Source of the DNA: Escherichia coli
GTDB taxonomy: Bacteria; Pseudomonadota; Gammaproteobacteria; Enterobacterales; Enterobacteriaceae
DNA length: 64,000 bases
Strand: one strand, 5' to 3'
NCBI RefSeq assembly: GCF_024223415.1
Contig: NZ_CP100500.1
Part shown: positions 3,112 to 20,103 of the stretch, piece by piece
Layout: every line of letters starts with the position of its first letter
Position numbering within the stretch: the first letter of the stretch is position 1
Program-made: the position numbers and the translations under genes
The notes under the pieces: generated by a model
The model's database searches: none
What the model saw: the letters and a program-made list of their open reading frames with translations, nothing else
Told to the model about the DNA's origin: nothing

Positions 3112-4938
3112 ATGTACAATTTTATCACTATAATGTATGATGTCTTTTCATGTTTTGGTGTTCTGGCTAAAAACCAGAATATCCGTGACATCCGAAATAT
3201 TAAAAACTTTTCCTCACATCAACATTCACTGGCCGACATGTTTGATGAATTAACATACATTATTGACAAAGAACAGGTACTGAGCACAGAACAACGAAAA
3301 GTTATATTCAGGAGATATGAAGATCTGTATGTTAAACTCATGCACTATTCTGTTTTTACAGACAAAACACATCAAATAATAAAACAAAAATATTTTAATG
3401 ATGTTGTTCCAATGATTCTCGCGCTCGACATCAGGAACACATATCGCCCGGATAATGAGATGGCATTTTACTATCATATCCATTCTTTTCTCACTCAGAT
3501 ACCGGATAATGAGGATGATATATATCATGCTGTAAGGACATATATGAGAAATTATGTTAAGTTATGTTTATCCGGATACACACCAACGAATGCGCATTTC
3601 AAAAATATCTTTGATGGAGTATATGAATTCATTCGTAATATTCGCAAAAACAGTACACCCGGAAAAACAAAACTTATTGCAGCTATCAACATATGCAAAG
3701 AAGCCTGTAAATATCTGCTTTGTTTAAGTGATAAAGACAAGGAAATAATATTTTCCGACTTAGATAAAATTCAGGTTGCATGTTATTCTCTCACTATATT
3801 ACTGGCTTTCGAAAGACGAACATCATTAACAAGTAACCTGGCAACTTTATATAAAATGCTGATAAACGAAAGAGAAGTTTCAGAATATGAATGTCAGCAA
3901 TTATATTTAATCAACCCAATAGATGTAATGAATATACTGAACAAATACATATATTACTTCCCTGGTGAGAATTCACCTCTTTATACACTGAAAATTGACA
4001 GTGCATTATCGTGGGATGCCATTGATGCAATACGAGACTATAGTATTTCTGATATTTATCTTTATCCTGAACAAAAAACAATAAATTGTATCGTTGAGAT
4101 TGAAAACATTGTCTTTGGCGGTTACATTTATACATTGAGCGACGGCGTCACATTACAAAATATGGAAAACACTTTAAAAGATTCCTCATGTCATTATGTA
4201 TTAAATGGCTATACAGAATTTGTTAACTGTTTAAGACAACTTACTTCAGGAAAGACTGAAAGTGTTCAGCGTACCATTAATAAACTGGAGTACGAAAAAT
4301 TACCTTTTGGATTTATCATTGCCGCGTTTGCTATATTAAAAATAGCATTTAAGATAAAGTTCAGTAAAAATCATGTAAATACCAGGGCATTATTAAATGA
4401 CATCAGTTATTTTATGACTTATCAGGGCGAGTCCATTAATCTTATTTCACTGGATCATGAATATCCAGAGTTCCGTCTTCAAAATGACACAAATACATAT
4501 TTATTGGGAAGGATGATATTTCTATATAACTCAATGATCTATAAATTCAGAAACTGCCAGGAACATGAAACCAATAACATTAACTCAGTTATGATAAATA
4601 ACCTATTACAGGAAGTTGATATAGCCCTTGGTAAAATAAATGACATTATAGACAGCAGAAACATATCAGTCCCCCATGAACTGGCAAATATTCTTATCCA
4701 CGAAAAAATACTTACAACACGTGAAAAAAAAGGAAACCTGATAAGCCTGTTTGATGGATTCACTTTATTCCATTGTGTTGGAATGATAACCTTTCTTATC
4801 CATTACCTCAGAACTCCTGAAGAAAAAGTAGAAAATGTATTTATGTTATATGGTGCAGATAAAAACAATAAACTACGCAGAAGACTGATTTATGATGCAC
4901 TAGAAATAATTCAGTCTCAGCAGGAGATGAAACCTTAA
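3112..4938 (+). CDS. Hypothetical 608-aa protein; AT-rich orphan cargo gene with no recognisable motif
   Basis: Long ORF with canonical AAGGAG Shine-Dalgarno 8 nt upstream of the ATG; AT-rich composition; no P-loop, HEPN, nuclease or transmembrane signature seen by eye. Confidence 0.8.
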   Translation: MYNFITIMYDVFSCFGVLAKNQNIRDIRNIKNFSSHQHSLADMFDELTYIIDKEQVLSTEQRKVIFRRYEDLYVKLMHYSVFTDKTHQIIKQKYFNDVVPMILALDIRNTYRPDNEMAFYYHIHSFLTQIPDNEDDIYHAVRTYMRNYVKLCLSGYTPTNAHFKNIFDGVYEFIRNIRKNSTPGKTKLIAAINICKEACKYLLCLSDKDKEIIFSDLDKIQVACYSLTILLAFERRTSLTSNLATLYKMLINEREVSEYECQQLYLINPIDVMNILNKYIYYFPGENSPLYTLKIDSALSWDAIDAIRDYSISDIYLYPEQKTINCIVEIENIVFGGYIYTLSDGVTLQNMENTLKDSSCHYVLNGYTEFVNCLRQLTSGKTESVQRTINKLEYEKLPFGFIIAAFAILKIAFKIKFSKNHVNTRALLNDISYFMTYQGESINLISLDHEYPEFRLQNDTNTYLLGRMIFLYNSMIYKFRNCQEHETNNINSVMINNLLQEVDIALGKINDIIDSRNISVPHELANILIHEKILTTREKKGNLISLFDGFTLFHCVGMITFLIHYLRTPEEKVENVFMLYGADKNNKLRRRLIYDALEIIQSQQEMKP

Positions 4939-5122: not shown

Positions 5123-6325
5123 TTATTTATTCATAATCTGAGACATCACATAATCCGCCCATGCCTGCATCATCGGTACACGCTGCTCCAGTAGATCAGT
5201 ACGATGATATGCCGCCTCAACCTTATTTTTCAGCGTATGAGCGAGCGCCCTTTCAGCCAGATCCCGCGAATACCCCTGCTCACTACACCAGTCCCTGAAT
5301 GTTGAACGAAAACCATGTGCCGTGGCGACTCGCCCCGGAATATCACTGACGGCTTTCTTTTTACGCAGAAAACTGGTCAACACCATATCTGAAAGGATCT
5401 GCTGCTTTCTGGGTGAAGGAAACACCAGTTCATCATGCAGACCACGTATATTTTCCAGAATGTAAATAGCCTGTCGGGATAAAGGAACACGATGCTGTAC
5501 CCTGGCTTTCATTCTTTCTGCTGGTATCGTCCATATCTGCTTATGAAAATCAATTTCAGTCCAGCGCATTCCCCTGGCTTCACCCGAGCGGGTTGCTGTA
5601 AGTATCACCATTAATAACAATGCGCGGGTAACATTATAGGGTTCATCGGTATACACACTGGTCGCCACAAAAAGCGGTAACTGCCTCCATGGCATTGCGG
5701 GTTGGTGTTCATCACGTCCTCTTGTCTGCTGGGGAAGCAAATGATCAACCACATCCACAGGATTTGCCACACAAAAACCATGTGCCCATCCCCACTGCAT
5801 AACAACATGAATGCGCTGTTTAACCCGGCTTGCCGTTTCTGACAAAGTTAACCAGACTGGCCGCAGTGTTTCTGCCACGTCCGCAGCCGTAATCGAATCC
5901 AGCGTTTTCGCTCCCAGTTGAGGAAAGGCGTAATTCTCAAGCGTCGATAACCACTGCCGGACATGCTTTGGATTTTCCCATCCAGGAGACAGTTCTGCAT
6001 GTACACGTCTGGCTGCATCGGCAAATGTTGGGATAACAACTTTTTCAGCCTCAGCCTTTTTAATCTCCAGAGGATCATCACCAGCAGCAAGTTGCTCTCG
6101 CATTATCCGGGCAGTACGTGCAGCTTCAGCAATGCTGATCTCAGGGTAAGTTCCCAATCCAGCATTACGCCTTTTTTGTGTCACCGGACTTACATAACGA
6201 AAAACCCATTTACCCCGACCCTTTACTGAAGAAGGATGAAGGGTCAGTCCTGTAATTCCCCCATGGGGCAATGGTTTGTCATCAGGTTTGATATGCCTTG
6301 CTTTCGTATCCGTCAATACTGCCAT
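5123..6325 (-). CDS. int: Tyrosine integrase, P4/CP4-57 family
   Basis: 400 aa; C-terminal catalytic region HGFRSTFRDWCSEQGYSRDLAERALAHTLKNKVEAAYHRTDLLEQR is typical of P4-like integrases. Confidence 0.9.
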   Translation of the reverse strand: MAVLTDTKARHIKPDDKPLPHGGITGLTLHPSSVKGRGKWVFRYVSPVTQKRRNAGLGTYPEISIAEAARTARIMREQLAAGDDPLEIKKAEAEKVVIPTFADAARRVHAELSPGWENPKHVRQWLSTLENYAFPQLGAKTLDSITAADVAETLRPVWLTLSETASRVKQRIHVVMQWGWAHGFCVANPVDVVDHLLPQQTRGRDEHQPAMPWRQLPLFVATSVYTDEPYNVTRALLLMVILTATRSGEARGMRWTEIDFHKQIWTIPAERMKARVQHRVPLSRQAIYILENIRGLHDELVFPSPRKQQILSDMVLTSFLRKKKAVSDIPGRVATAHGFRSTFRDWCSEQGYSRDLAERALAHTLKNKVEAAYHRTDLLEQRVPMMQAWADYVMSQIMNK

Positions 6326-6543: not shown

Positions 6544-6692
6544 CATTTTATCTGCCTGTACGGCAGTGAACATGGTGGGCGGGTGGAGTATGTTACCAGT
6601 GAATTTCTAAGCTGCCTGTACGGCAGTGAACGTTTGCTGCAACCGCTAGCCAAGACGGTAGGTTTTTCTAAGCTGCCTGTACGGCAGTGAAC
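6544..6692 (-). CRISPR. Orphan type I-F CRISPR mini-array: 3 repeats, 2 spacers, no cas genes in the window
   Basis: Minus-strand repeat GTTCACTGCCGTACAGGCAGCTTAGAAA (the E. coli I-F repeat) at 6604-6631 and 6665-6692 plus a degenerate terminal copy at 6544-6571; spacers of 32-33 nt. Confidence 0.85.
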
Positions 6693-9616: not shown

Positions 9617-9633
9617 TGATAGATAACTATCAT
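9617..9633. other. Left att core candidate TGATAGATAACTATCAT
   Basis: Near-identical copy TGATAAATAACTATCAT at 20087-20103. Confidence 0.4.
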
Positions 9634-9705
9634 TTATATCATTTAGTTAATTAGTCTTTATTTTTCATTATGTTGCAAATAACAAGCCCGTCAAAAACAG
9701 TGATA

Positions 9706-9760
9706 TTAACTACACCATTAACTACACCGCTTCACGAACAATATCGAACAACCGCGAACA
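9706..9760. repeat. Left-arm repeats: AACTACACC x2 followed by CGAACA x3 (candidate integrase or accessory-factor sites)
   Basis: The same motifs recur in the same orientation at 19946-20078. Confidence 0.4.
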
Positions 9761-9880
9761 AAGATCAACACGCTTTAATCATTATCATTTTCCGGCTATC
9801 CGTCATGAAGCTGGTGGATGATCTGCGTGGTGATTTCCACCATTCAGAGCAGGTGCGGTCATCATGACCATGCCATAACA

Positions 9881-9905
9881 AAAACCCCATATTCGTGGTT
9901 TTTCT
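9881..9905 (+). repeat. 25-bp direct repeat copy 1 (AAAACCCCATATTCGTGGTTTTTCT)
   Basis: Second copy AAACCCCCGGATTCGTGGTTTTCCT at 10518-10542; the pair flanks a hairpin-rich non-coding segment. Confidence 0.5.
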
Positions 9906-10517
9906 GTGTCGGGGCTATTCTGCTGTTGCCGTGCTGGTGGATATTCTCCGGTATGCGGCTCCCCATATCGGCATCAGGCCCACCAGCGTGAAGCGTTTTT
10001 CATTTTTCGCGGGTATAAAAAATCGATGGGGCGGGCAGTCCTGAAGACGTCAGGGTACAGAGATTTGACCCGCCCCTCCCTGTGCATGAGCACAATAAGT
10101 AACCGAAGGCGGAATTCCGCCCTCGGTACTTACATATGAGAAACGATATTTCTTCCACCGATACCCTTTATTTGGGTATCGCGAGTAAGCCCCAAAATCT
10201 GGGTGTTACTCTTACTACCCAAACTACGGGTAGTTTCCGTAGTTTCATGGTCGAGTTGCAAATCTGCAACTCACCCACCAGCCAGCGCAATGTCGCATTA
10301 TCAGTCCTCAGATGTGAGGGATGTAGCCAGCTTTTCCCCCAGTGGGGATTATCCAGTTACCGACGGTTTAACCGCCTGTACCAGCACAACGAAAGAATTT
10401 GCGGGTAGCTTTAAACTACTCACAACATCCCATCTTACAGGCCGTGCCTTTCTAACTTTTTACAATGCAATAAGTCAGGTAACGCTATGCGTTCCACCGT
10501 GTACACCGCGCCAGTAA

Positions 10518-10542
10518 AACCCCCGGATTCGTGGTTTTCCTG
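10518..10542 (+). repeat. 25-bp direct repeat copy 2
   Basis: See copy 1 at 9881-9905. Confidence 0.5.
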
Positions 10543-10554
10543 AATATCAGGAAT

Positions 10555-10929
10555 CTACCGCCGCAACCGTTCCGGCTTCTTCCACTGATAAGTGTTTTTC
10601 GCGCTCTCCCTCCGTTGTTGAGAACGGCGACGGTATGCCAGCAACTCAAGGACTCTGGTTCGTATGTTGCGCATATCCACGCCGTTAAGCTCAATACCAT
10701 CACGGCGCATCACCTCAGCAACAACACACGCGTAATTTTCGGCTATCACGCTGTCCGGCTGCGTGGCCTCCTGTTCGCCAGCCTGCTGGCTGATTCCGGT
10801 AATACTGCGGATTATCCCGAGCGCTTCGGTCTCGGTCATGGTCATGGCCTCCATAGTGATGGCGGGTCCTCCTTGTGGGGTGCCCTGCCACGGGGCGGGA
10901 GCATCGCGGAAAAAGGCTAGTTTTTGCAT
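10555..10929 (-). CDS. Hypothetical protein of the satellite packaging module
   Basis: 124-aa ORF downstream of the Nu1-like gene; no recognisable domain; start uncertain. Confidence 0.45.
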   Translation of the reverse strand: MQKLAFFRDAPAPWQGTPQGGPAITMEAMTMTETEALGIIRSITGISQQAGEQEATQPDSVIAENYACVVAEVMRRDGIELNGVDMRNIRTRVLELLAYRRRSQQRRESAKNTYQWKKPERLRR

Positions 10930-11090
10930 TTTTATTCGTTATCACCACCAATGCAATATATTGATATGACTTGATGTTTTATTTTTCGGTGTCGATTTCG
11001 ATTGTTTTTTGTTCATCACTGACGCATAACGCCCACCAGCGCAACGCTGAAAGCCAGTCAGTAAACTGGCTTCGGTCATTGTGCACTACG

Positions 11091-11645
11091 TTACTTGTCT
11101 TTATCCGGCTGAAACTTATCAGGCACATTTCCGGTAGTTTCCATCAGATAATCGGACAGCATTCGCGGGATGTTTTCATCAAGTTTTGTGCATGCGTTAC
11201 AGGCTCTGACAACTTCTTTTTTCAGGCCATCCAGCATGGCGGGGGTCATCTGTGGGAAGCTCCTTTGCATAGTAAGCGGGAGGCTGTCCATGATTGATGA
11301 AATCTGACTCGCCAGTTTTGAAAGCGCGTACATGCAAAACTCTGTATCAATCACGTCACCGCGATCGCGCTCGTTTTTAAGTTCCTGCGCCTCCGCCTGT
11401 GCTGTCAGTAATCTGATCCTGACTCGTAAAAGTTCATCATCGTCAATCTCGCCTTTGTCGTTTGTAATCTGGCTGATTGCATTGTTAACCCGATTATCTA
11501 TTACACTGGCGACATCATAAAACGTCTCACGGCCCTTACGCTCGACGGGAATCACTCCCCACTTATCGAACGCAGTGGCGCTTACTCGGCAGCTTTTCGC
11601 CATGTTTTTTTTATTCATCAGGTGCGATTTCATCAATACCCCCAC
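11091..11645 (-). CDS. Terminase small subunit, lambda Nu1-like
   Basis: LLRVRIRLLTAQAEAQELKNERDRGDVIDTEFCMYALSKLASQISSIMDSLPLTMQRSFPQM...LDENIPRMLSDYL aligns with lambda Nu1; probable true start at the MNKKNMAK Met near 11618. Confidence 0.8.
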   Translation of the reverse strand: MGVLMKSHLMNKKNMAKSCRVSATAFDKWGVIPVERKGRETFYDVASVIDNRVNNAISQITNDKGEIDDDELLRVRIRLLTAQAEAQELKNERDRGDVIDTEFCMYALSKLASQISSIMDSLPLTMQRSFPQMTPAMLDGLKKEVVRACNACTKLDENIPRMLSDYLMETTGNVPDKFQPDKDK

Positions 11646-11727
11646 TTAATTAATGCTTCAGGTTGGTGTGTTGGTGTTATCTTTCCATTTTTATTCATAG
11701 AGATAGAGCGAACAACAAAACCACCAC

Positions 11728-11790
11728 CAACCCGAAAAGGCTCATAAATAGCGAAAATCCGCAAGGTCGACGCCCCGTAACGGGTCCACA
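11728..11790 (-). other. Lambda-type cos site (cosN/cosB)
   Basis: Minus strand reads ACGGGGCGTCGACCTTGCGGATTTTCGCTATTTATGAGCCTTTTCGGG, matching the lambda cos sequence as I recall it (ACGGGGCGGCGACCTCGCGGGTTTTCGCTATTTATGAAAATTTTCCGG); about 120 bp upstream of the Nu1-like gene. Confidence 0.8.
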
Positions 11791-11805
11791 TGCCGGAAAG
11801 GACCC

Positions 11806-11835
11806 ATAAAAAATAAAGCCGGACTACTCCGGCTT
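11806..11835 (-). terminator. Rho-independent terminator after the FinO/ProQ-like gene
   Basis: Stem AGCCGGA / TCCGGCT followed on the minus strand by a T-rich run. Confidence 0.5.
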
Positions 11836-11858
11836 CGTCTCTTCATGTGGTCAGGGTT

Positions 11859-12539
11859 TTATGCTTTCCGTACGCCCGAGGAACTGGCATTTTTCAGAAT
11901 AATATTATGCCCTGCTGGTGGCTTACCGTTATGCTTATTTTCTGCCTTCATGTTTCTGCGCTCCTGCTGTTTTTTCTTCATCTCATCCAGTCGCTTCCCC
12001 GCGTTCAACTGGTGCTCCTGTGTCACCTCCCCGCACGGATGGCCTTTCAGGTCGTAACGCACGCCACCAGCCATCAGGGAACGGTAATATCGCACTGAAC
12101 TGACATAATACGCCAGCGTTGCGCGAAGCGCTCCCTGACCTAATGAAATACCTCTCGCAGTAATATCCTCCATCAGGTCATCAAATATGCCAACCTTAAG
12201 CGGTCTGGGCGATTCCTGGCTGAAAAGTTCAGGCCAGAGCGCGGCAAGGCGTTCAACGCGTCTGATATTTTTTTTCCGGCTCTTTTCTGATTTGCGTTTT
12301 GCTGCCGTCTTCTGTTGTGTTTTCTGCTCGCGGCTCTGCTTTTGCGCTGGTGTGGTTTTATCCGGCTGTTCAGCCTCCTGCGTCTTTTTCTGCGGTGTGC
12401 CGTATATGCCTTTTGGTTTTCGGTTAATGGTCAGCTTTGTCATGTTCTCCCCCTTTGTGCTGTTCCACCAGCGGCATCTGCTACCCCGTGTCGCTCCCGC
12501 TGGTGTCGTGTTTCCCCGCCTGTTAATAACCGTCATCAT
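11859..12539 (-). CDS. FinO/ProQ-domain RNA-binding protein with a Lys/Gln-rich N-terminal region
   Basis: RPLKVGIFDDLMEDITARGISLGQGALRATLAYYVSSVRYYRSLMAGGVRYDLKGHPCGEVTQEHQ aligns with the E. coli ProQ N-terminal domain (RPLKIGIFQDL...RLYTSSWRYL...RVDLDGNPCGEL); start uncertain. Confidence 0.75.
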   Translation of the reverse strand: MMTVINRRGNTTPAGATRGSRCRWWNSTKGENMTKLTINRKPKGIYGTPQKKTQEAEQPDKTTPAQKQSREQKTQQKTAAKRKSEKSRKKNIRRVERLAALWPELFSQESPRPLKVGIFDDLMEDITARGISLGQGALRATLAYYVSSVRYYRSLMAGGVRYDLKGHPCGEVTQEHQLNAGKRLDEMKKKQQERRNMKAENKHNGKPPAGHNIILKNASSSGVRKA

Positions 12540-12843
12540 TTACGTTATCAGGGTAATCACGCCATATTTCATCAGTAAGCGACGGTAGCCCCATCTGTTG
12601 TATTGTCCTGTCTGCGGCCCTTCTGACTGCGTGAACATCATAACGGTTTTCAGGTATCGGGCGCTTTGCCTTCCTGATACATTCCCTTGCTCTCATTGCC
12701 GCAAGTTCTCTGTGCCTGTCTTCCTGAAGAGTAATCATCACATCCTGCCACCTTCTGGCAGCCCGTCGCCACAGTCCCCTGCTCTCGAGTTCTTCTGCTG
12801 TCGCGTCGCTTATTGTCCGGTTCTTCGGTGTGCTGTTGTTCAT
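12523..12843 (-). CDS. PerC-family transcriptional activator-like protein
   Basis: N-terminal EELESRGLWRRAARRWQDVM resembles the PerC/Pch signature (recalled, not searched). Confidence 0.55.
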   Translation of the reverse strand: MNNSTPKNRTISDATAEELESRGLWRRAARRWQDVMITLQEDRHRELAAMRARECIRKAKRPIPENRYDVHAVRRAADRTIQQMGLPSLTDEIWRDYPDNVNDDGY

Positions 12844-12860
12844 GTTGCTCCCCGCCTGAT

Positions 12861-13271
12861 TCAGAAGGGTATATCATCTCCGTAGGGGTCATCGCCTCCC
12901 GCTGGTGGCTTATTCCCCTGTGCGCCTGTGGTTTTGCGTGTTTTTCCGCCCGGTCGCACTGTCCGCGCACTGATTACGCTGTCTGCGATAACCTGCCAGC
13001 CCTGCCGCGTTTCCCCGTTCTGTCCGGTCCACTGGCTCACCTGCATGTTACCCGCCACGCTCAGGAGTTCACCCTTGCGGTGCTTTGCCAGTGCTTCGGC
13101 CTGTCTGCCAAACGCCAGCACAGATAACCACATCGTCGCCGTTCCGTCATCTGCCTGGCTGCACGGAAGGGGGACCGCCATACTCGCCATCGCCATTTGT
13201 GTCCCCTTGCTGGTGGTCTTTAACTGCGGGTCAGCCACCAGCCGCCCGTAAGCCGCTATCTGTGCTGTCAT
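12861..13271 (-). CDS. ssb: Single-stranded DNA-binding protein (SSB)
   Basis: OB-fold-like N-terminus (IAAYGRLVADPQLKTTSKGTQMAMASMAV), Gly-rich linker and the acidic C-terminal tail DDIPF. Confidence 0.8.
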   Translation of the reverse strand: MTAQIAAYGRLVADPQLKTTSKGTQMAMASMAVPLPCSQADDGTATMWLSVLAFGRQAEALAKHRKGELLSVAGNMQVSQWTGQNGETRQGWQVIADSVISARTVRPGGKTRKTTGAQGNKPPAGGDDPYGDDIPF

Positions 13272-13525
13272 GCTGTATGCTCTCCGGTTTTAACGTTGAT
13301 GGTTGTCACCTGTTCCGCTCCGGCAATCTCCCGTTCTGTCAGCGTGGCAAAATTTGCCGCTACCGTTGTCATGAATGCGCTTATCAGTGCGGGATGTGCT
13401 TTCGCGTATCCTTCTCCCGCGCTGCGGTCGATAATTTTTATCGCCACCCTCAGCCAGTGCTCTGTAAGGTCAATGGCGCGGTTATGTGGTTTCTTCTGAT
13501 TATTAAGTTTTCCTGATGTGTGCAT
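13268..13525 (-). CDS. Hypothetical protein
   Basis: 85-aa ORF overlapping the ssb start by 4 nt (translational coupling). Confidence 0.5.
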   Translation of the reverse strand: MHTSGKLNNQKKPHNRAIDLTEHWLRVAIKIIDRSAGEGYAKAHPALISAFMTTVAANFATLTEREIAGAEQVTTINVKTGEHTA

Positions 13526-13570
13526 TTTTATTTTTACCCCCTCGTTTAAAAAGTTTTGTGTTGTGGTGCA

Positions 13571-13806
13571 CCTCCTCTACCTCTCTACACAATCATCTTT
13601 CAGGTCAGTAATGGCGCGGCTTTCAGCGGGGTAGAGGGCTTTTTTGGCCCTCTACCTGCCATCTACCACCCCCTCACAAATGCCCTGAATTATGGTAGAG
13701 GGTGTAGAGGGCTTTTAAGTACCTTCTACCTGCCATCTACCCAATCTATCAACATGAAATATATGTAATTATTTTCTTAAGGTAGAAGGGGTAGAGGGCT
13801 TTTGTC
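13571..13806. repeat. Iteron cluster; candidate satellite replication origin
   Basis: At least three copies of GGTAGAGGGCTTTT and repeated CTACCTGCCATCTACC, including the palindrome GGTAGAGGGC-TTTTTTG-GCCCTCTACC, immediately 3' of the primase gene. Confidence 0.55.
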
Positions 13807-13811
13807 TAAAA

Positions 13812-15560
13812 CTATAAAAACGCGTCGCAGTCGTCTGTTGTTGTCACGTTGGTTTGCGTAACCCCTTTAATCCTGCGCGTTATATATTCATGTCCGTAAA
13901 CTTTCGCCGCTGGCTTCATGGCCTTGCTGAACTCAGCCACGTTCAGCGGTTTGCTCCTGCCTGCATACGCCATAAACGCCAGATAGACGCGGTAAAGGCT
14001 GTTTCTGGTCGTGTACTTCACGGAATCGCCACCGCCCCCCATCATCAGGCCACGTGCTTCCTCCAGAAAATTCAGGAACTGGCAAAACTCAATAACCGGA
14101 TCCGTTTGCTGCTTTATCGCCAGTGCTTCATCACCGTCACGCTGTTCCAGTAGTAAAGCCCGCGCCTTTTCAGGGTCTGCAAAGTTCGCCAGTAATCGGC
14201 GGATAATGACGGGGATTTCAGCCGCAATCCTTTCCGGTAGCTCCCTGTCTTTTTCAGCCTCACTGACGATATTGTCGAAACGAAAAATCACGCGACGACG
14301 TGCCACACCTCCGGCCCGTTCGGTGAATATCATCGGGTTATTGTTGGTCGCCAGCACCACCGCCCTGATTACAGCCGTGAAACGCTTTTCGTATTTCGGG
14401 TTAATTTCCACGGGGTCACCGCCCGTGATTTTCTTGATGCCCGTTCCTTCGCCTGTATATTTCGGCTGGTCTGCCAGGACGATAAGACGACTCCCGACAA
14501 CCTGCGCACGCCCACCAGCATCATCAAGCGATGTCATCTCAGCGCTTACCGTGTTCTGTTTCCCTGCCAGAAGGCTGGCTATGTGCGTGAATGTACTTTT
14601 ACCGCTCCCGCCGTCTCCGGTGGCCTCAATAAACATCTGCCAGTCGTACCGGTTCGCCATAATCATGTACAGCGCGGCACATATACGCATCATCTTGCGC
14701 GGGTCTTTTCCGGCTGCGTGCTCAAGCCATTTATGAAAGTTTGGCGCGTTATCGCGGATGTTCTCCCCAGGTGCTGGTGGCGTGTACTCAATGCCATTGT
14801 GCGTGGTGATCCAGTTCTCCGGCGTGTGCGGGGAAAATTCCCCCGTTTTCAGGTCAAGCGCACCATTGGCGAACGGCAGCAAATCGCCGGACGGCTCGCC
14901 CATTGGTTCGGCAATAACTTTTAACGCTTCCACGGCGTTATTGATTACGCGCTTGCTGAAAGTGGCCCTGTGCTCTGAATAGATCGCCACCATTTCGCGG
15001 CTCAGTTCCATTGTGCTGACCGGACACCATACCCCGCCGCGCCATACGTGAACGATTTCACTTTCCGGATGCACACAAACGCCATCAAATCGACCAGCAA
15101 GCATCTGTGCGCGCTCACTGTCTGCCATTTGTGCCAGTTGCGTATTTTTCTGCTCCGGCATGGTAAGCCCTGCAGCAATATTTTCACGCTCAGCATTCAG
15201 ATAACGCCGCCAGTTTTCACACTTCTGACCGTGCATTCCTTCGGGGTAAAAATTTGCGTCCTGTACGCCAGCCGCCGCCAGCTTCTGACCAATCGCCTTT
15301 ATCATTACTGGCGCAAGATATCCGGCCCTGAATATACGCACGGATTTTCTGCCTTCCGGCACAATTTGCAGCTTATCCAGTTCGGATAACTGCTGCTCCC
15401 CAAGCCACACAGGAGGCTCATTATCTCCGGCCATACGCGCGTCATGTTCCTGCCATTGTTTCGCGTGTGCCCAGGCATCACTACCCGCAAAAATAATGAC
15501 TTCAGTTCCTTTGTGTTTTATGCCGCGTGACTGCAGTTTTACGTTCGGTGCCAGTTTCAT
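13812..15560 (-). CDS. Replication protein: primase/helicase (P4 alpha-like, P-loop NTPase)
   Basis: 582 aa; Walker A GDGGSGKSTFT; size and position match satellite pri-rep genes. Confidence 0.8.
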   Translation of the reverse strand: MKLAPNVKLQSRGIKHKGTEVIIFAGSDAWAHAKQWQEHDARMAGDNEPPVWLGEQQLSELDKLQIVPEGRKSVRIFRAGYLAPVMIKAIGQKLAAAGVQDANFYPEGMHGQKCENWRRYLNAERENIAAGLTMPEQKNTQLAQMADSERAQMLAGRFDGVCVHPESEIVHVWRGGVWCPVSTMELSREMVAIYSEHRATFSKRVINNAVEALKVIAEPMGEPSGDLLPFANGALDLKTGEFSPHTPENWITTHNGIEYTPPAPGENIRDNAPNFHKWLEHAAGKDPRKMMRICAALYMIMANRYDWQMFIEATGDGGSGKSTFTHIASLLAGKQNTVSAEMTSLDDAGGRAQVVGSRLIVLADQPKYTGEGTGIKKITGGDPVEINPKYEKRFTAVIRAVVLATNNNPMIFTERAGGVARRRVIFRFDNIVSEAEKDRELPERIAAEIPVIIRRLLANFADPEKARALLLEQRDGDEALAIKQQTDPVIEFCQFLNFLEEARGLMMGGGGDSVKYTTRNSLYRVYLAFMAYAGRSKPLNVAEFSKAMKPAAKVYGHEYITRRIKGVTQTNVTTTDDCDAFL

Positions 15561-15856
15561 TTTTTACCCCTGAATCCGTTAATCATGGTTTTCATCTTCT
15601 GAATATTGGCGCGTGCTTTCTCCCTGCTGGTGGGCACGTTACGCGGTACGGCCTGCACAAGAGAAAAATCACGCACAAACTGATAAACAGGCATCACGCA
15701 ATCATATTCGTAACCTTCATGGCGGTAGGTGATGCGCCGTTCTGCCACGCCTTTAATCGTTACCGTACCGCCGTAGTTATCACGGAAAATATCGCCGGGA
15801 CGGATTTCAGGCCGAGTGAGGCCGCTGGCAGTAAAGCCAGAATTTTTCTTTTTCAT
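15557..15856 (-). CDS. Hypothetical protein (99 aa), coupled to the primase gene
   Basis: Stop overlaps the primase start (ATGA). Confidence 0.6.
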   Translation of the reverse strand: MKKKNSGFTASGLTRPEIRPGDIFRDNYGGTVTIKGVAERRITYRHEGYEYDCVMPVYQFVRDFSLVQAVPRNVPTSREKARANIQKMKTMINGFRGKK

Positions 15857-15886
15857 GGTTTTATTTTCCTGTCAGTGATTCCGGCT

Positions 15887-16060
15887 TTATTCCGGCGCGA
15901 ATACAGGCTTCAGAAAAAAAGCCAGAGAACCAATAACCTCATTATTTCTAAGGCGGCATTGCGATTTCACTTTCCCTTTATCCAGGAATATCAAAACGCG
16001 CCCCGTATAATCAGATGGCACATTAAGCACTACAGGTAAGTGCGCTTCATGATTATTCAT
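15887..16060 (-). CDS. Hypothetical small protein (57 aa)
   Basis: Start trimmed to the ATG preceded by AGGAGGTGG; N-terminus MNNHEAHLPVVLNV; start overlaps the stop of the upstream gene. Confidence 0.5.
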   Translation of the reverse strand: MNNHEAHLPVVLNVPSDYTGRVLIFLDKGKVKSQCRLRNNEVIGSLAFFLKPVFAPE

Positions 16061-16340
16061 GGCTAACCACCTCCTGGAATTTTCTTCTGTAACGCGCCTC
16101 TGCCACATATTCAGCATAGTCCGACGCAATATTGAGAATATCGCTACCCGTTCCTGAATGTTCGGCGGTTTCCAGTAAAAAACATGCAGCTTTTACCATG
16201 TCAGCAACACATAACAGCGCAATATCTGTATCTTCCGGTGTGCCATCAAATTCCTGTTTCAGGGCATTAAAACGATCATCACGCATAACCCCATATTCAC
16301 AATCAGCAATCAGGATGGCTTTGGCCTCATTCAGTGCCAT
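16053..16340 (-). CDS. Hypothetical protein; N-terminal extent uncertain (may start at 16496)
   Basis: Only the C-terminal 95-147 codons of the 662-aa track ORF look protein-like (MALNEAKAILIADCEYGVMRDDRFNALKQEFDGTPEDTDIALLCVADMVKAACFLLETAEHS). Confidence 0.4.
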   Translation of the reverse strand: MALNEAKAILIADCEYGVMRDDRFNALKQEFDGTPEDTDIALLCVADMVKAACFLLETAEHSGTGSDILNIASDYAEYVAEARYRRKFQEVVSHE

Positions 16341-16494
16341 ATCAGCGGTAAGCTGTGCGTAGGCCAGCAAATGCGGGATTATTGCCCCTGTATATTCCGG
16401 CTCTCTGATAATGTGGTCGGATGTGTTGATTAAATAGTTTGTGCGAAAAATGCACCTGTAACCATCAGTTAACAACGGATATACAGGGGGGACC

Positions 16495-16665
16495 ATGAAT
16501 GATAAGGGGGTGCCGTTTGATGTGCTCCTGCAAAAGCTGAATGCTGCACGCGCCGCAAGGGAACGTGAGCGCATGAGTAATAACCCTGTCCCTCCTGAAT
16601 TACCTCGCCCTGAACATTTTCCGCTTGAGGATTTCATCAGGGGACGAATCCGAACAAAACGATAA
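16495..16665 (+). CDS. Small protein (56 aa), paralog of the 16909 ORF
   Basis: ATG preceded by a G-rich Shine-Dalgarno; shares the PxxFPLE(D/R)FI motif with ORF 16909..17103; below the track length cutoff. Confidence 0.35.
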   Translation: MNDKGVPFDVLLQKLNAARAARERERMSNNPVPPELPRPEHFPLEDFIRGRIRTKR

Positions 16666-16908
16666 CCGCCGCCGTGATATGAGGCATCACGACGCAATGC
16701 ATTACAGGTGAGCACCATGAACAAATCCATATTATCCCCCACAGTTCTGGACGTAAACACAAAGCAGCGACAGATATTATTACGCGCCGTCATTAAAGCC
16801 AGACACGAGAAATTAAACCAAATCTTAAAATAAGATACGCCGCTACCGCTGTAAGTCTTCATCAGAAACAGAAAACGCCAGAGCAGATGAGCACGGAGGT
16901 AACTCTTT

Positions 16909-17103
16909 ATGAAAATAAACGAATCAGGGGAAATTACCGAAGCCAGCGTGGTACGCCAGCGGAGGCGGGAACGACGGGTACGGCCCCCCGCGCCATCCGA
17001 TAATTTCCCGCTTGAGCGCTTCATCAGTGAACGGCCCCGCATACGCTGGAACGGCACAACCCCATACCCCGAGGAGAGACAGACAAAAAACAAACAGCGA
17101 TGA
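16909..17103 (+). CDS. Small protein (64 aa), paralog of the 16495 ORF
   Basis: GGAGGT Shine-Dalgarno 9 nt upstream; C-terminal FPLERFISERPRIR. Confidence 0.4.
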   Translation: MKINESGEITEASVVRQRRRERRVRPPAPSDNFPLERFISERPRIRWNGTTPYPEERQTKNKQR

Positions 17104-17382
17104 TGAAATCTGGAGGCCAATACCATCACCCAGCCAGTCGGGGATTGCTGGCGGGCTTCCTGTTCGCTGGTGGCCCCGATGGTAATAACGCGTGGTTGTG
17201 CTGTGCTCAGGGCGATAAAACGCCAGATGTATTTATTCAGGTTGTGCGGGTCCCGCCCTTGCGGGTGTGTGGTATGATTTAACATAGCTACCTCGATACG
17301 CTTTCTATCGTTGGTGGTTAGAAGCCCCGTTACTGCTCCAACAGTGCGGGGTTTCGTCGTTTCTGCACCTTTCATCAACAAG

Positions 17383-17434
17383 GTGTTGAACACCAATTTA
17401 AGCCTAGGTGTTAAACACGCCAAGTGTTGAACAC
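17383..17434 (+). promoter_or_regulatory. Three palindromic operator-like sites GTGTT(G/A)AACAC
   Basis: Sites at 17383-17393, 17408-17418 and 17424-17434, about 50 bp upstream of the small gene at 17485. Confidence 0.55.
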
Positions 17435-17484
17435 TTATTTTTTTTCCTGCATACTGCATTTGTTTTTTGTAAGGGGTACACAAC

Positions 17485-17664
17485 ATGGCGACAAAAGCAG
17501 TAAACGCAAAATCACAAACAGTTGCGGCAAGGGTTCCGCATGAAGTTATGAACAATGTTGAGGCGGTAAAAATGCCTGGTGAAAGTACAGGGCAGTTTGT
17601 AACAGCAGCATTAAAGCGAGAAGTTGAATACCGCCAGCGCCGCAAGGCCAAAGAATCAGAATAA
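17485..17664 (+). CDS. Small DNA-binding protein, ribbon-helix-helix-like (59 aa)
   Basis: AAGGGG Shine-Dalgarno; N-terminal strand-like TVAARVPHEVMNNVEAV then a basic helix; downstream of the palindromic operators. Confidence 0.45.
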   Translation: MATKAVNAKSQTVAARVPHEVMNNVEAVKMPGESTGQFVTAALKREVEYRQRRKAKESE

Positions 17665-17712
17665 TCACTATCAGCGCCGTGGTGTGAGGTACTGCGGCGC
17701 ATTGTTTTAAAG

Positions 17713-17913
17713 GTGATAATTATGAATAACCAGGAACTACAAAATAAAGCATTATCAATTATCATGCGCCAGCGTGAGAAAACCCGCAGGGAAATAAATA
17801 AGGCATTAACCCGTACTGAAAATCTTAAAGTTCCTGATAAGTTCGCCCTTGATCCTTTTGTCGAGAAATACCCTCGGCGCTTAAAAGCAAACAAAAACCG
17901 CCCACCTGGCTGA
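17713..17913 (+). CDS. Hypothetical small protein (66 aa)
   Basis: AGGTGA Shine-Dalgarno; basic helical sequence. Confidence 0.4.
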   Translation: MIIMNNQELQNKALSIIMRQREKTRREINKALTRTENLKVPDKFALDPFVEKYPRRLKANKNRPPG

Positions 17914-18051
17914 CAATCCACCAGCAAGCCACCACACTGGACACATTGCCCACCAGCCAGCAAATCGCTATGATGTTCGGGCTTATGTTTAGTGTTTTCC
18001 CATTGGCGACCGCCCCCGGTCGCCTTTGTTTTATGTGTCATATACTCCCCT

Positions 18052-18348
18052 TTACGCTGCCTTGCCTGAATTAATGCGATCCCGGCTTTTAACCCATTCC
18101 ATAACCTCGGACAGCAGCCAACCTACAGAACGCCCACCAAGATTACGGCGAGACGGAAAGCTCCCTTTTTTCTCCAGTTCGTAGCGTGTAGTGCGACACA
18201 CTCCAGTTAACTTACGACATTCATCCTCACGGATTACGCGATCTTCATTTATTTCACGCATACAAAAACCTACATAAAAATTACGTATATAAACTTTTCT
18301 CTTAGCTGTAGATATATGAGATCGGATATTACTTAGATTCTTTTTCAC
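18052..18348 (-). CDS. AlpA-family transcriptional regulator
   Basis: C-terminal TRYELEKKGSFPSRRNLGGRSVGWLLSEVMEWV matches the AlpA pattern; true start may be an internal Met. Confidence 0.7.
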   Translation of the reverse strand: MKKNLSNIRSHISTAKRKVYIRNFYVGFCMREINEDRVIREDECRKLTGVCRTTRYELEKKGSFPSRRNLGGRSVGWLLSEVMEWVKSRDRINSGKAA

Positions 18349-18680
18349 CTCTTAAATTAAAAACACAACCATGCTAAAGGCTTTGTTCGCTAAGGTTCGT
18401 AGAAGCTCGTTAGTGTTTAAAATCGTGTCACGAGTTTTTAAGCGACGCAACAAAAAATGTCGTCATTTGGCATGTCACCTGAATTACCTCATTAAAAACA
18501 AATAGATAAACCATCAGATGTTGGAACAATCAAGAAACAGAGAATAAGAACTCAGAAGAAGACATTTCAATTTTTTTCGATAGTTGACACATATAAAGAG
18601 AAGATATTTGCAGATATTCCCCGATATTCTAAGATCTATTCACGGCTGTAATCTCTTAAAGAAAAAACAGCCGTAATTTG

Positions 18681-19919
18681 TCAAGAATTTTGGGGGTAAA
18701 TTCGCGGGGTCATAACAACGATTTTTTCATCATTGTTCTGGAGAAGCTCGAGACGGTCTACCCATAGATTAAGAGCGTCACGCTTTGCATCGAGATAACG
18801 GGAGTGGTTATAGACGCGTTGCATTCCTGGCATCTGGTGGGCAGTAAGCTGTTCAACAATATGCGGATCCACGCCTAAATCGTTCAGCATGGTTGTAAAT
18901 GTGTGCCGGATGTCGTGCAACGACCAGGGGGCTTGATTAATGCGTCTGTGTGCCGTTCTTCCGTACTCTGCTACGGATGATTGCCCTTTCAGTTCTCCAA
19001 GCAATAAGCCCGTGTGCCTGTTCTGCTCCACCAGCTTCATGACGAACGGCAAGATCGCTTCCGGTATTGGCCTGAATATTGCTACCTTCGTTTTGCTGTG
19101 TTCTTTCGGCACAGTCCAGAGCATTTCTTTAAAATCCCATTCCCGAACCTCGGAGCGTCTTAGCTCAGTGGTACGGCATCCGAAGACAATCAGAAGGCGA
19201 ATTAAAGCGCTGTAGTACGGCGGGAAAATTTTTTCATCCAGTGCGCGGAGTAGCTCGCCAAGCTCCTTGTTTGTTAGCACTCGCTCGCTTATTTCTGCTT
19301 TTTTTCCCACATCACCTACGACCATATCATCAAGAACGTTACTGACGGCGTAGCGACGTTTACGGCAGTACTTAAGCGCCTGTTTGCATACCTGCAACAA
19401 AAAGCCGGCTGATACCGGATTACGCTTAGCAAGCTGGTCAAAACAGGCCAGCCAGTGGCGTAGCTCGCATTTATCCAGCGGCATAGCACCAATCTGGCTG
19501 ATTATGTGCTTATTGATACGGCTTTTCAGTGATTCGTGGTCAGTGCGCTTTTCCTTCGCATACGACTCAAGCCAGTAAGTGAGCGCGTCCTTAACCGTCA
19601 CGGGGGCTAACGCTTCCTGCACTGTGTGATTAAGCTCATGGCGTGGATTTTTCCCCTCCGCCAGCCAGGCGCGACACTGTGCCGCTTTTTCCCTGGCTGC
19701 TTTCAGGCTCAGATCGGGATAGTTGCCCAGTCTCAGGCGTTCCGGTGATACCTGCCTGCCAGTTCCGGCCCTGTAAGTGAAATACCAGGTTAACAGGCCG
19801 CTGGTGGAATGTCTTACGCTAAGATTGCCACCGTCATTAAAAAAGGCGTTTTTTGTGGTTGGTGATCCGCTTAATTTTCGTAAAAGAGTGTCGCTAAGTC
19901 TATGAATTGCGCTGCTCAT
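18681..19919 (-). CDS. int: Tyrosine integrase
   Basis: 412 aa; catalytic region LHDIRHTFTTMLNDLGVDPHIVEQLTAHQMPGMQRVYNHSRY. Confidence 0.9.
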   Translation of the reverse strand: MSSAIHRLSDTLLRKLSGSPTTKNAFFNDGGNLSVRHSTSGLLTWYFTYRAGTGRQVSPERLRLGNYPDLSLKAAREKAAQCRAWLAEGKNPRHELNHTVQEALAPVTVKDALTYWLESYAKEKRTDHESLKSRINKHIISQIGAMPLDKCELRHWLACFDQLAKRNPVSAGFLLQVCKQALKYCRKRRYAVSNVLDDMVVGDVGKKAEISERVLTNKELGELLRALDEKIFPPYYSALIRLLIVFGCRTTELRRSEVREWDFKEMLWTVPKEHSKTKVAIFRPIPEAILPFVMKLVEQNRHTGLLLGELKGQSSVAEYGRTAHRRINQAPWSLHDIRHTFTTMLNDLGVDPHIVEQLTAHQMPGMQRVYNHSRYLDAKRDALNLWVDRLELLQNNDEKIVVMTPRIYPQNS

Positions 19920-19945
19920 GTTTCGCGTTTCCGGTCATCAAAATT

Positions 19946-20078
19946 AACTACACCATTGACTACACCGTGCATCGTACAAGGGCAAACCGTGACGAACAAG
20001 AGCGAACAAGTAAAACAAAATTTTCCTTTATAATCATAGCGATGAATGCACACAAAACACTACCACGAACACCCGCGA
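19946..20078. repeat. Right-arm repeats: AACTACACC / GACTACACC followed by CGAACA motifs
   Basis: Same motifs and orientation as the left arm at 9706-9760; overlaps the int promoter region. Confidence 0.4.
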
Positions 20079-20086
20079 ACACTAGA

Positions 20087-20103
20087 TGATAAATAACTAT
20101 CAT
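20087..20103. other. Right att core candidate TGATAAATAACTATCAT
   Basis: Direct repeat of 9617-9633 with one mismatch. Confidence 0.4.

Follow-up and report, generated by a model that had tools for sequence, protein, structure and literature searches.

A lambda-type cos site and a Nu1-family small terminase gene in a satellite island of Escherichia coli

Packaging of cos-type phage-inducible chromosomal islands (PICIs) has been described for islands that encode Rpp, a protein of 135 to 153 amino acids (aa) without the C terminus that binds the large terminase subunit (TerL); Rpp heterodimerizes with the small terminase subunit (TerS) of the helper phage and retargets it to the cosB of the island (PMC6739421). 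PICIs with terS have also been described (PMC6092414, PMC10085698): the EcCIIHE3034 and 18098 islands "encode TerS" (PMC6092414), and De Sousa et al. (2023) list the small terminase among the core components of PICIs. The literature searched held no functional work on a Nu1-type TerS in a cos PICI. Here, we analyze an island of this kind in Escherichia coli, which lies in a stretch of 64,000 nucleotides (nt) of contig NZ_CP100500.1 (NCBI RefSeq assembly GCF_024223415.1), called the window below. A lambda-type cos site, with cosQ and cosN, is followed there by a gene for a full-length Nu1-family TerS, and we lean toward the view that this TerS recognizes the cosB of the island itself and directs a helper's TerL to cut the island cosN.

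The island is a terS-carrying E. coli PICI and a variant of EcCIIHE3034. The two have the cspD-clpS site, the att core, and a backbone of integrase, primase, and single-stranded DNA-binding protein (SSB) in common, and their modules of cos, terS, and a 94-aa hypothetical gene are 87% identical in DNA. Since EcCIIHE3034 has this site, backbone, and module and terS-carrying PICIs have been published, the kind of element is already known. EcCIIHE3034 alone has a major-capsid gene, a head-decoration gene, and a 137-aa gene upstream of cos, as well as a second, inverted cos, whereas the island in the window has ProQ/FinO and PerC genes upstream of cos and lacks cos2. Their cohesive ends differ as well, with GGGCGGCGACCT in EcCIIHE3034 and GGGCGTCGACCT in the window. 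New relative to the literature searched is how the terS-type cos module would work and how it relates to Rpp.

The cos site and the small terminase

The minus strand of window positions 11900 to 11620 was aligned with a lambda reference in which the last 150 bases of J02459 (its right end) are joined to the first 200 (its left end). Positions 11810 to 11687 (minus) matched lambda -35 to +97 with 93 identities in 132 positions and a local alignment score of 108, compared with a mean of 22.2 (standard deviation, 3.3; maximum, 38) for 500 shuffles of the window segment. Every other 280-nt tile of the window scored 43 or less against lambda cos, leaving a single lambda-type cos there, and a scan with the cosN 15-mer, allowing up to 3 mismatches, found no convincing second cos in the 64 kb. 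The identical or nearly identical blocks of the alignment are the cosQ block, GTTACG with the cohesive end, and TTTTCGCTATTTATGA (bp 19 to 34); the cohesive end GGGCGTCGACCT agrees with lambda at 11 of its 12 bases, the one change being G6T. A first-pass annotation of the sequence had named a lambda-type cos on the minus strand with a single change in the cohesive end, which the alignment bears out. The range that it gave, 11091 to 11800, takes in the open reading frame (ORF) and cosN and stops just short of the cosQ block at 11805 to 11793.

The cosQ, cosN, and I2 blocks and the R3 position are common to lambda, N15, and the island (Table 1). Unlike lambda and N15, the island has no R1, no consensus for integration host factor (IHF), diverged R sequences, and no TerL gene after terS. 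The lambda R sequence is absent from its cosB, whose conserved blocks occupy the positions of R3 and R2 and are inverted relative to each other. An inverted repeat, complementary at 11 of 12 positions, joins 11657 to 11668 with 11725 to 11736. In N15, R3 has been mapped experimentally to bp 48 to 60, and a cosB with R3 alone can suffice. These comparisons indicate that the island cosB is not lambda's and is a diverged relative of the type found in N15 and in a prophage of strain STEC1585; therefore, lambda itself need not be the helper.

The terS ORF spans 11091 to 11645. The first-pass annotation had read it as a protein of 184 aa that aligns with Nu1 through its C-terminal portion. The homology to Nu1 proves stronger than that, as the alignment extends over the full length of the protein. 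The GTG start at 11645 that gives 184 aa is less likely than the ATG at 11633, which the family keeps and RefSeq calls as well and which yields 180 aa. The Pfam family PF07471 matches aa 36 to 151 (82.3 bits against a cutoff of 30; 4e-23), phrog_57 matches aa 1 to 173 (1.9e-52), and BLASTP aligns aa 10 to 170 with Nu1 at 37% identity (E = 1e-36). The closest phage relative is gp1 of N15, 47% identical over the full length, and a collection of 50,697 phage genomes held no phage TerS more than 47% identical.

Residues 100 to 167 align without gaps to residues 111 to 178 of Nu1, with 44% identity over aa 100 to 140 and 41% over aa 141 to 167. In Nu1, the region of residues 100 to 181 carries self-assembly and gpA binding (PMC6739421). 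Beyond the aligned part, the protein ends in a 13-aa tail, ETTGNVPDKFQPDKDK, which none of the four phage TerS proteins compared has (lambda, N15, the STEC1585 prophage, and CFT073 phage 4). An AlphaFold2 (AF2) model, built on a 15-sequence alignment with a predicted local distance difference test (pLDDT) score of 71.5, has a strand-helix-helix-hairpin-helix fold at aa 5 to 56, followed by four long helices. Its beta-alpha1-alpha2-wing-alpha3 order would be that of a winged helix-turn-helix (wHTH).

No gpA-like TerL was found in the 64-kb window or within 3 kb at 92 related loci, and the positive control of this search worked. With neither a TerL nor a second cos, the window shows no helper prophage. 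The absence of an adjoining or overlapping TerL gene, which phages have, fits a satellite copy. The first-pass annotation had proposed just this, a satellite that holds both a cos and a TerS homolog, and the att-bounded stretch of ~10.5 kb agrees: integrase, AlpA-like regulator, primase with iterons, and SSB are present, and lysis, tail, and TerL genes are absent from the island. The packaging hijack of a lambdoid helper that the annotation read from this is supported insofar as satellite, cos, and TerS all hold up computationally.

Conservation and exchange of the cos-terS cassette

The cos-terS module, counted at a query coverage of at least 80%, is present in 762 of 5,426 complete E. coli genomes (~14%). 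For closer examination, we assembled a family set from 80 IMG/VR loci and 4 genomes, 73 of which have a recognizable start codon and cosN. In all 73, terS follows cos, and the order is the same: cosQ, cosN, the I2 block, TGGTGGTGGTTTTGTTGTT (bp 47 to 65), an A/T-rich spacer, CAATACACCAACCTGAA (approximately bp 103 to 119, inverted), and ATG. The GGGTCC of the cosQ block is kept in 72 loci and reads GGGGCC in one, with the remainder of the block variable in some members. The cosB is almost invariant, its R3-equivalent TGGTGGTGGTTTTGTTGTT nearly so at every locus, and the cohesive end comes in eight variants, of which GGGCGGCGACCT is carried by 46 loci and the window variant GGGCGTCGACCT by 2. 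Two other variants were followed in IMG/VR; once the many chance matches to the 15-mer had been filtered out, they turned up in true lambda-like phages and in a separate satellite group, described below, with a lambda-type cosB and neither TerS nor Rpp. Since GGGCGTCGACCT, GGGCGGAAGGCG, and GGGCGTCAGGCG are also the cohesive ends of lambdoid phages with lambda- or 21-type cosB and a TerL 92 to 100% identical to gpA, the variants are not defects.

Within TerS, invariant positions make up 78% of aa 1 to 60 versus 38% of aa 126 to 180. Some C-terminal segments are identical, which indicates recombination. The C-terminal types do not pair one to one with cosN variants in this set; the type found in the window goes with at least four cohesive ends.

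Measured against the window gene, terS has a dN/dS of ~0.1 to 0.2 and is under purifying selection. An orphan TerS without TerL, which RefSeq plainly labels "terminase small subunit," the annotation that its homologs uniformly bear, could, together with cos, be a relic of a lambdoid prophage that no longer serves any function. However, hundreds of genomes keep an intact ORF at this low dN/dS, it always sits at the same place in a 10-kb island that att sites bound and that carries int, alpA, and pri-rep but none of the other phage late genes, and phage relatives closer than 47% are missing from the genome collection named above. We therefore find a decayed remnant very improbable.

The same data bear on a second possibility, that TerS serves interference only, as a decoy that sequesters the helper TerL or binds phage DNA and so blocks phage packaging in defense, while the ordinary helper terminase cuts the island cos. 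PICIs typically interfere with their helpers, Rpp blocks lambda and phi80 (PMC6739421), and the C-terminal third of TerS is its most variable part, as expected if it tracks diverse TerL partners. Yet a pure decoy needs neither a linkage of terS to cos in 73 of 73 loci nor the co-conservation of DNA-binding domain and cosB. Moreover, the island cosB has no lambda-, 21-, or N15-type R sequences, so a helper TerS should recognize it poorly. Interference as the sole role seems to us quite doubtful.

Two further groups of loci were seen alongside the family. In the L263-L339 group of IMG/VR, which includes many short contigs, a PICI-like CTGGCGGGTCC lies upstream, the cohesive end is GGGCGTCAGGCG, and the lambda-type cosB is complete (R3-I1-R2-R1). 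The 1.9 to 9 kb of downstream sequence at the loci checked held neither TerS nor Rpp nor TerL, and these satellites seem simply to carry the cos of their helper. The Enterobacteriaceae contigs L028 to L030 hold relatives of the island whose TerS has 170 aa and which interrupt a lambdoid prophage within its major capsid gene. There, homologs of FI, Z, U, and V come after a truncated Phage_cap_E, a "helper-embedded PICI" arrangement (Mageeney et al. 2023).

The relation of the module to Rpp is best seen in EcCICFT073, whose cos1 and RppA have been described (PMC6739421, PMC9026076). It has the backbone and the terminator-cosQ-cosN-I2 sequence of the island in the window, and the same hairpin stands ahead of cos in both EcCICFT073 and the IHE3034-type islands. 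Next to cosB, EcCICFT073 and the window island each have a gene whose product is a wHTH protein, in the case of TerS a probable one, and then the same 93/94-aa ORF; an island-specific cosB and an island protein that would read it thus appear to be a shared logic. EcCICFT073 and window-type islands are 95% identical to just past the I2-equivalent of cos1 and again from cos2 onward, and between these stretches lie 662 bp of cosB and rppA in the former versus 790 bp of cosB and terS in the latter. The boundary of the rpp and terS cassettes falls directly past the I2-position block TTTTCGCTATTTATGAG. Because a diverged cassette sits in a 95%-identical backbone, we regard the rpp and TerS cassettes as alternatives for one slot.

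The occupants differ. RppA has 144 aa, no TerL-binding C terminus, and a need for helper TerS, whereas the island TerS has 180 aa and a Nu1-like C terminus; on the DNA, CACCACCACCAC at about bp 55 to 66 in CFT073 contrasts with TGGTGGTGGTTTTGTTGTT at bp 47 to 65 plus the R2-like element here. BLASTP found no similarity between RppA and the island TerS (E = 5.9), the latter had no match to RppC in the PDB (6HLK, 6HN7), and RppA weakly matches the N terminus of Nu1. Judged by these comparisons, the island TerS is not an Rpp. As a separate observation, CACCACCACCAC, in the proposed Rpp site of EcCICFT073 (L011:2560-2660), is the reverse complement of GGTGGTGGTGG, bp 47 to 57 of the terS-type cosB, which may be a coincidence or a trace of common origin.

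An Rpp-like mode of action is nonetheless conceivable: the island TerS would form mixed oligomers with the helper TerS, poison its recognition of phage cosB, and retarget it to the island cosB, so that helper TerS would still be required. Its gene lies directly downstream of cos in the exact slot that rppA takes next to cos1, Nu1-family TerS proteins oligomerize via a central region that is 44 to 49% identical here, and Rpp has been proposed to have evolved from TerS (Fillol-Salom 2019, PMC6739421). The missing similarity to RppA and RppC argues against such a mode, as does the C-terminal region homologous to the TerL-binding part of Nu1, which the island TerS keeps, unlike the Rpps, so that it has no obvious need for helper TerS. 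We consider an Rpp-like mode unlikely.

The nearest TerS proteins, at 46 to 47% identity (48% over aa 1 to 60, also against N15 gp1), are those of N15 and of a lambdoid prophage in STEC1585 and DEC5D. The R core of both the prophage and N15 is GGTTGTTGTTTAAT; the closest cosB relative of the island cosB is the N15 R3, GGTTGTTGTTT, and the island cosB aligns position for position with the N15/STEC1585 type. The R3-equivalent TGGTGGTGGTTTTGTTGTT is homologous to GGTTGTTGTTTAAT yet has diverged from it, with GGTGGTGGTTTTGT in the island versus GGTTGTTGTTTAAT in the phages, and the R2 core reads ACACCAACC in the island versus ACAACAACC in the phages. In the protein, the predicted recognition helix starts with TAFDKWGV in the island and with QAFDKWGV in the phages. 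The pairing of this T with GGTGGTGG is kept in Enterobacter and Citrobacter relatives whose TerS is only 59% identical. The island TerS and cosB thus look like a diverged, self-matching pair.

A natural chimera indicates how such pairs may move. P0099, a 194-aa TerS of E. coli PICIs at the phoQ site (L025 to L027), joins two halves at the conserved AQA(D/E)AQELKN motif: the N-terminal one is almost that of the 21-like TerS from CFT073 prophage 4, and the C-terminal one is identical to the window TerS. The cosB of these islands is 21-like (R3-I1-R2-R1); therefore, DNA-binding halves and cosB were swapped together. The island-type C-terminal half, including the 13-aa tail, was retained. Tentatively, then, cosB and terS may form a self-contained, orthogonal unit of packaging specificity that uses helper TerL without helper TerS, a dependency opposite to that of the Rpp islands. 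The unit may also represent the state from which the rpp cassette arose, or an alternative to it, with exchange at the cosQ-cosN-I2 block and, as the chimeric P0099 suggests, at the AQELKN motif. We hold this wider proposal to be quite possible, with less confidence than the packaging role itself.

Predicted packaging route and helper

In the route that we favor, a lambdoid helper phage would induce the island, which would excise and replicate. The island TerS would bind the island cosB through its putative N-terminal wHTH, at the R3-equivalent (bp 47 to 65) and the inverted R2-like element (bp 103 to 119), and its Nu1-like C-terminal part would recruit the gpA-type large terminase of the helper. 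This TerL would nick the lambda-type cosN to leave 12-nt ends, GGGCGTCGACCT. Island concatemers would then be packaged into helper capsids, with termination at a later cos using cosQ. The lambda head is filled by roughly 38 to 51 kb of DNA, and four units of 10.47 kb (41.9 kb) would fit a lambda-sized head.

As modeled, the route resembles that of pac-type Staphylococcus aureus pathogenicity islands (SaPIs) with their own TerS (TerS_S; PMC6739421, PMC6092414), in which the satellite likewise supplies the specificity subunit and takes TerL and capsids from the helper. The SaPIs differ in their headful packaging, a TerS of an unrelated family, and a separate Ppi; the island in the window is cos-type, with a Nu1-family TerS.

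The most probable helper would be a lambdoid phage with a terminase of the N15/STEC1585-prophage type. One IMG isolate genome, 2778261447 (L014, L015, L020), harbors an island identical to that of the window, an Rpp-type island, and a lambdoid prophage with an N15-type cosB and its own TerL. All three cos elements carry the rare T-variant cohesive end GGGCGTCGACCT, which suggests exchange of cosN, or selection on cosN, between satellites and resident helper.

Several observations weigh against this route. Transfer of EcCIIHE3034 after induction of its resident prophages was almost nil, <1 to 40 per ml (PMC6092414), and one contig combines a TerS-type island with a lambda-like prophage of differing cosN. 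The inverted repeat in cosB is clear only in the variant of this island, as its first arm differs in most relatives. A scan that allows up to 2 mismatches and recovers lambda I1 detects no IHF consensus between the R3-like and R2-like elements. No sigma-70-like promoter was seen between cos and terS, and a terminator lies just upstream. As to the protein, a Foldseek search of the AF2 model against the PDB gave MerR-type wHTH proteins as best matches, all weak and all short of E ≤ 0.001, and the Nu1 DNA-binding domain, 1J9I, was not among the matches when PDB sequences were searched with phmmer. The latter search is uninformative because the TerS N terminus is too diverged; the probable assignment as a wHTH therefore leans mainly on homology to N15 gp1 and Nu1.

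The island, its surroundings, and what it may mean

The island lies between clpS and yljB/cspD. The att core published for EcCIIHE3034 at the cspD-clpS site (PMC6092414), ATGATAGTTAT, reads ATAACTATCAT on this strand and bounds the island at 9623 and 20093. A 25-bp repeat at 9705 and 19943 was dropped as att in favor of this core. The region is 99.9% identical to that of E. coli Br_112_kylling. Besides integrase and primase, the island encodes an AlpA-type regulator, SSB, PerC, and ProQ/FinO, and then come cos, terS, and the gene of the 94-aa phrog_1561 protein (Table 1). The iteron repeats beside the primase gene have the arrangement expected of a PICI replication origin. A Pfam scan of the ten main island ORFs matched ProQ, PerC, SSB, and DUF4222 and found no Psu or Sid.

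Table 1. Features of the island, with positions in the window
Feature	Position	Strand	Remarks
Whole satellite island (PICI, EcCIIHE3034 variant)	9623..20103	-	Between clpS and yljB/cspD; unit of 10,470 bp
Conserved 94-aa hypothetical protein, phrog_1561	10555..10839	-	After terS here, after rppA in EcCICFT073
terS, Nu1-family small terminase, 180 aa, full-length	11091..11633	-	ATG 11633; Shine-Dalgarno GGGGG at 11643-11639
R2-like element CAACACACCAACCTGAA (bp 103-119), inverted relative to R3-equivalent	11657..11673	-	Family-conserved; aligns to R2 of STEC1585 prophage cosB
R3-equivalent TGGTGGTGGTTTTGTTGTT (bp 47-65), candidate island-TerS binding site	11711..11729	-	Position of lambda R3 (bp 50-65) and N15 R3 (bp 48-60)
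I2-position block TTTTCGCTATTTATGAG (bp 19-35)	11741..11757	-	Common to lambda, EcCICFT073 cos1, and all family members
cosN cohesive end GGGCGTCGACCT (bp 1-12)	11764..11775	-	Left flank GTTACG as in lambda
cosQ-equivalent block GGGTCCTTTCCGG	11793..11805	-	Identical to lambda -30..-18
Terminator-like hairpin and T-run ending upstream ProQ/FinO gene	11815..11836	-	Directly before cosQ
Iterons, 3-4 direct repeats of GGGGTAGAGGGCTTTT and CCCTCTACCTGCCATCTACC	13628-13803		Just downstream of primase gene
Primase, D5_N/DUF5906/Pox_D5, P4-alpha/D5-type	13812-15560
Integrase, P4-type	18681-19919

P4 and P4-like satellites have in common with this island a P4-type integrase, an alpha-like primase, AlpA, an Icd-like annotation, and a cos. 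P4 differs in its 19-nt P2-type cos and in psu, delta, and sid; the island has a lambda-type cos, and no such genes were seen in it. The Icd-like annotation concerns a 662-aa ORF at 16053 to 18041 (minus) without a Pfam match, 410 aa of which RefSeq annotates as an "Icd-like host cell division inhibitor"; the IHE3034 island has a 67-aa Icd-like gene there. The ORF may be over-called across a regulatory or noncoding region.

Outside the island, a second P4-type integrase gene (5123 to 6325, minus) lies directly beside clpA, at a spot where other strains have a tRNA-Ser gene (serW). ARAGORN found no tRNA in the 64-kb window, and this integrase probably belongs to another island, with a tRNA target beyond the window. 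Its neighbor, a 608-aa ORF at 3112 to 4938 (plus), has no Pfam match. A pair of CRISPR-DR4 repeats (Rfam RF01317; 50 bits for either one) separates clpA from this integrase gene, at 6604 to 6631 and 6665 to 6692 (minus); they resemble the small type I-F-associated CRISPR remnant that is known beside E. coli clpA.

E. coli PICIs spread virulence and defense genes and are being engineered as delivery vehicles. Rpp, which depends on helper TerS, is the only packaging mechanism of cos-type islands that has been worked out, and ~14% of complete E. coli genomes bear the terS-type module instead. If the island TerS does recruit helper TerL directly, there would be a second route of cos-packaging piracy, made of one protein and one site. 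The origin of Rpp would then be explained, and the module would offer an orthogonal cosB/TerS pair for the selective packaging of synthetic DNA in lambda-type capsids.

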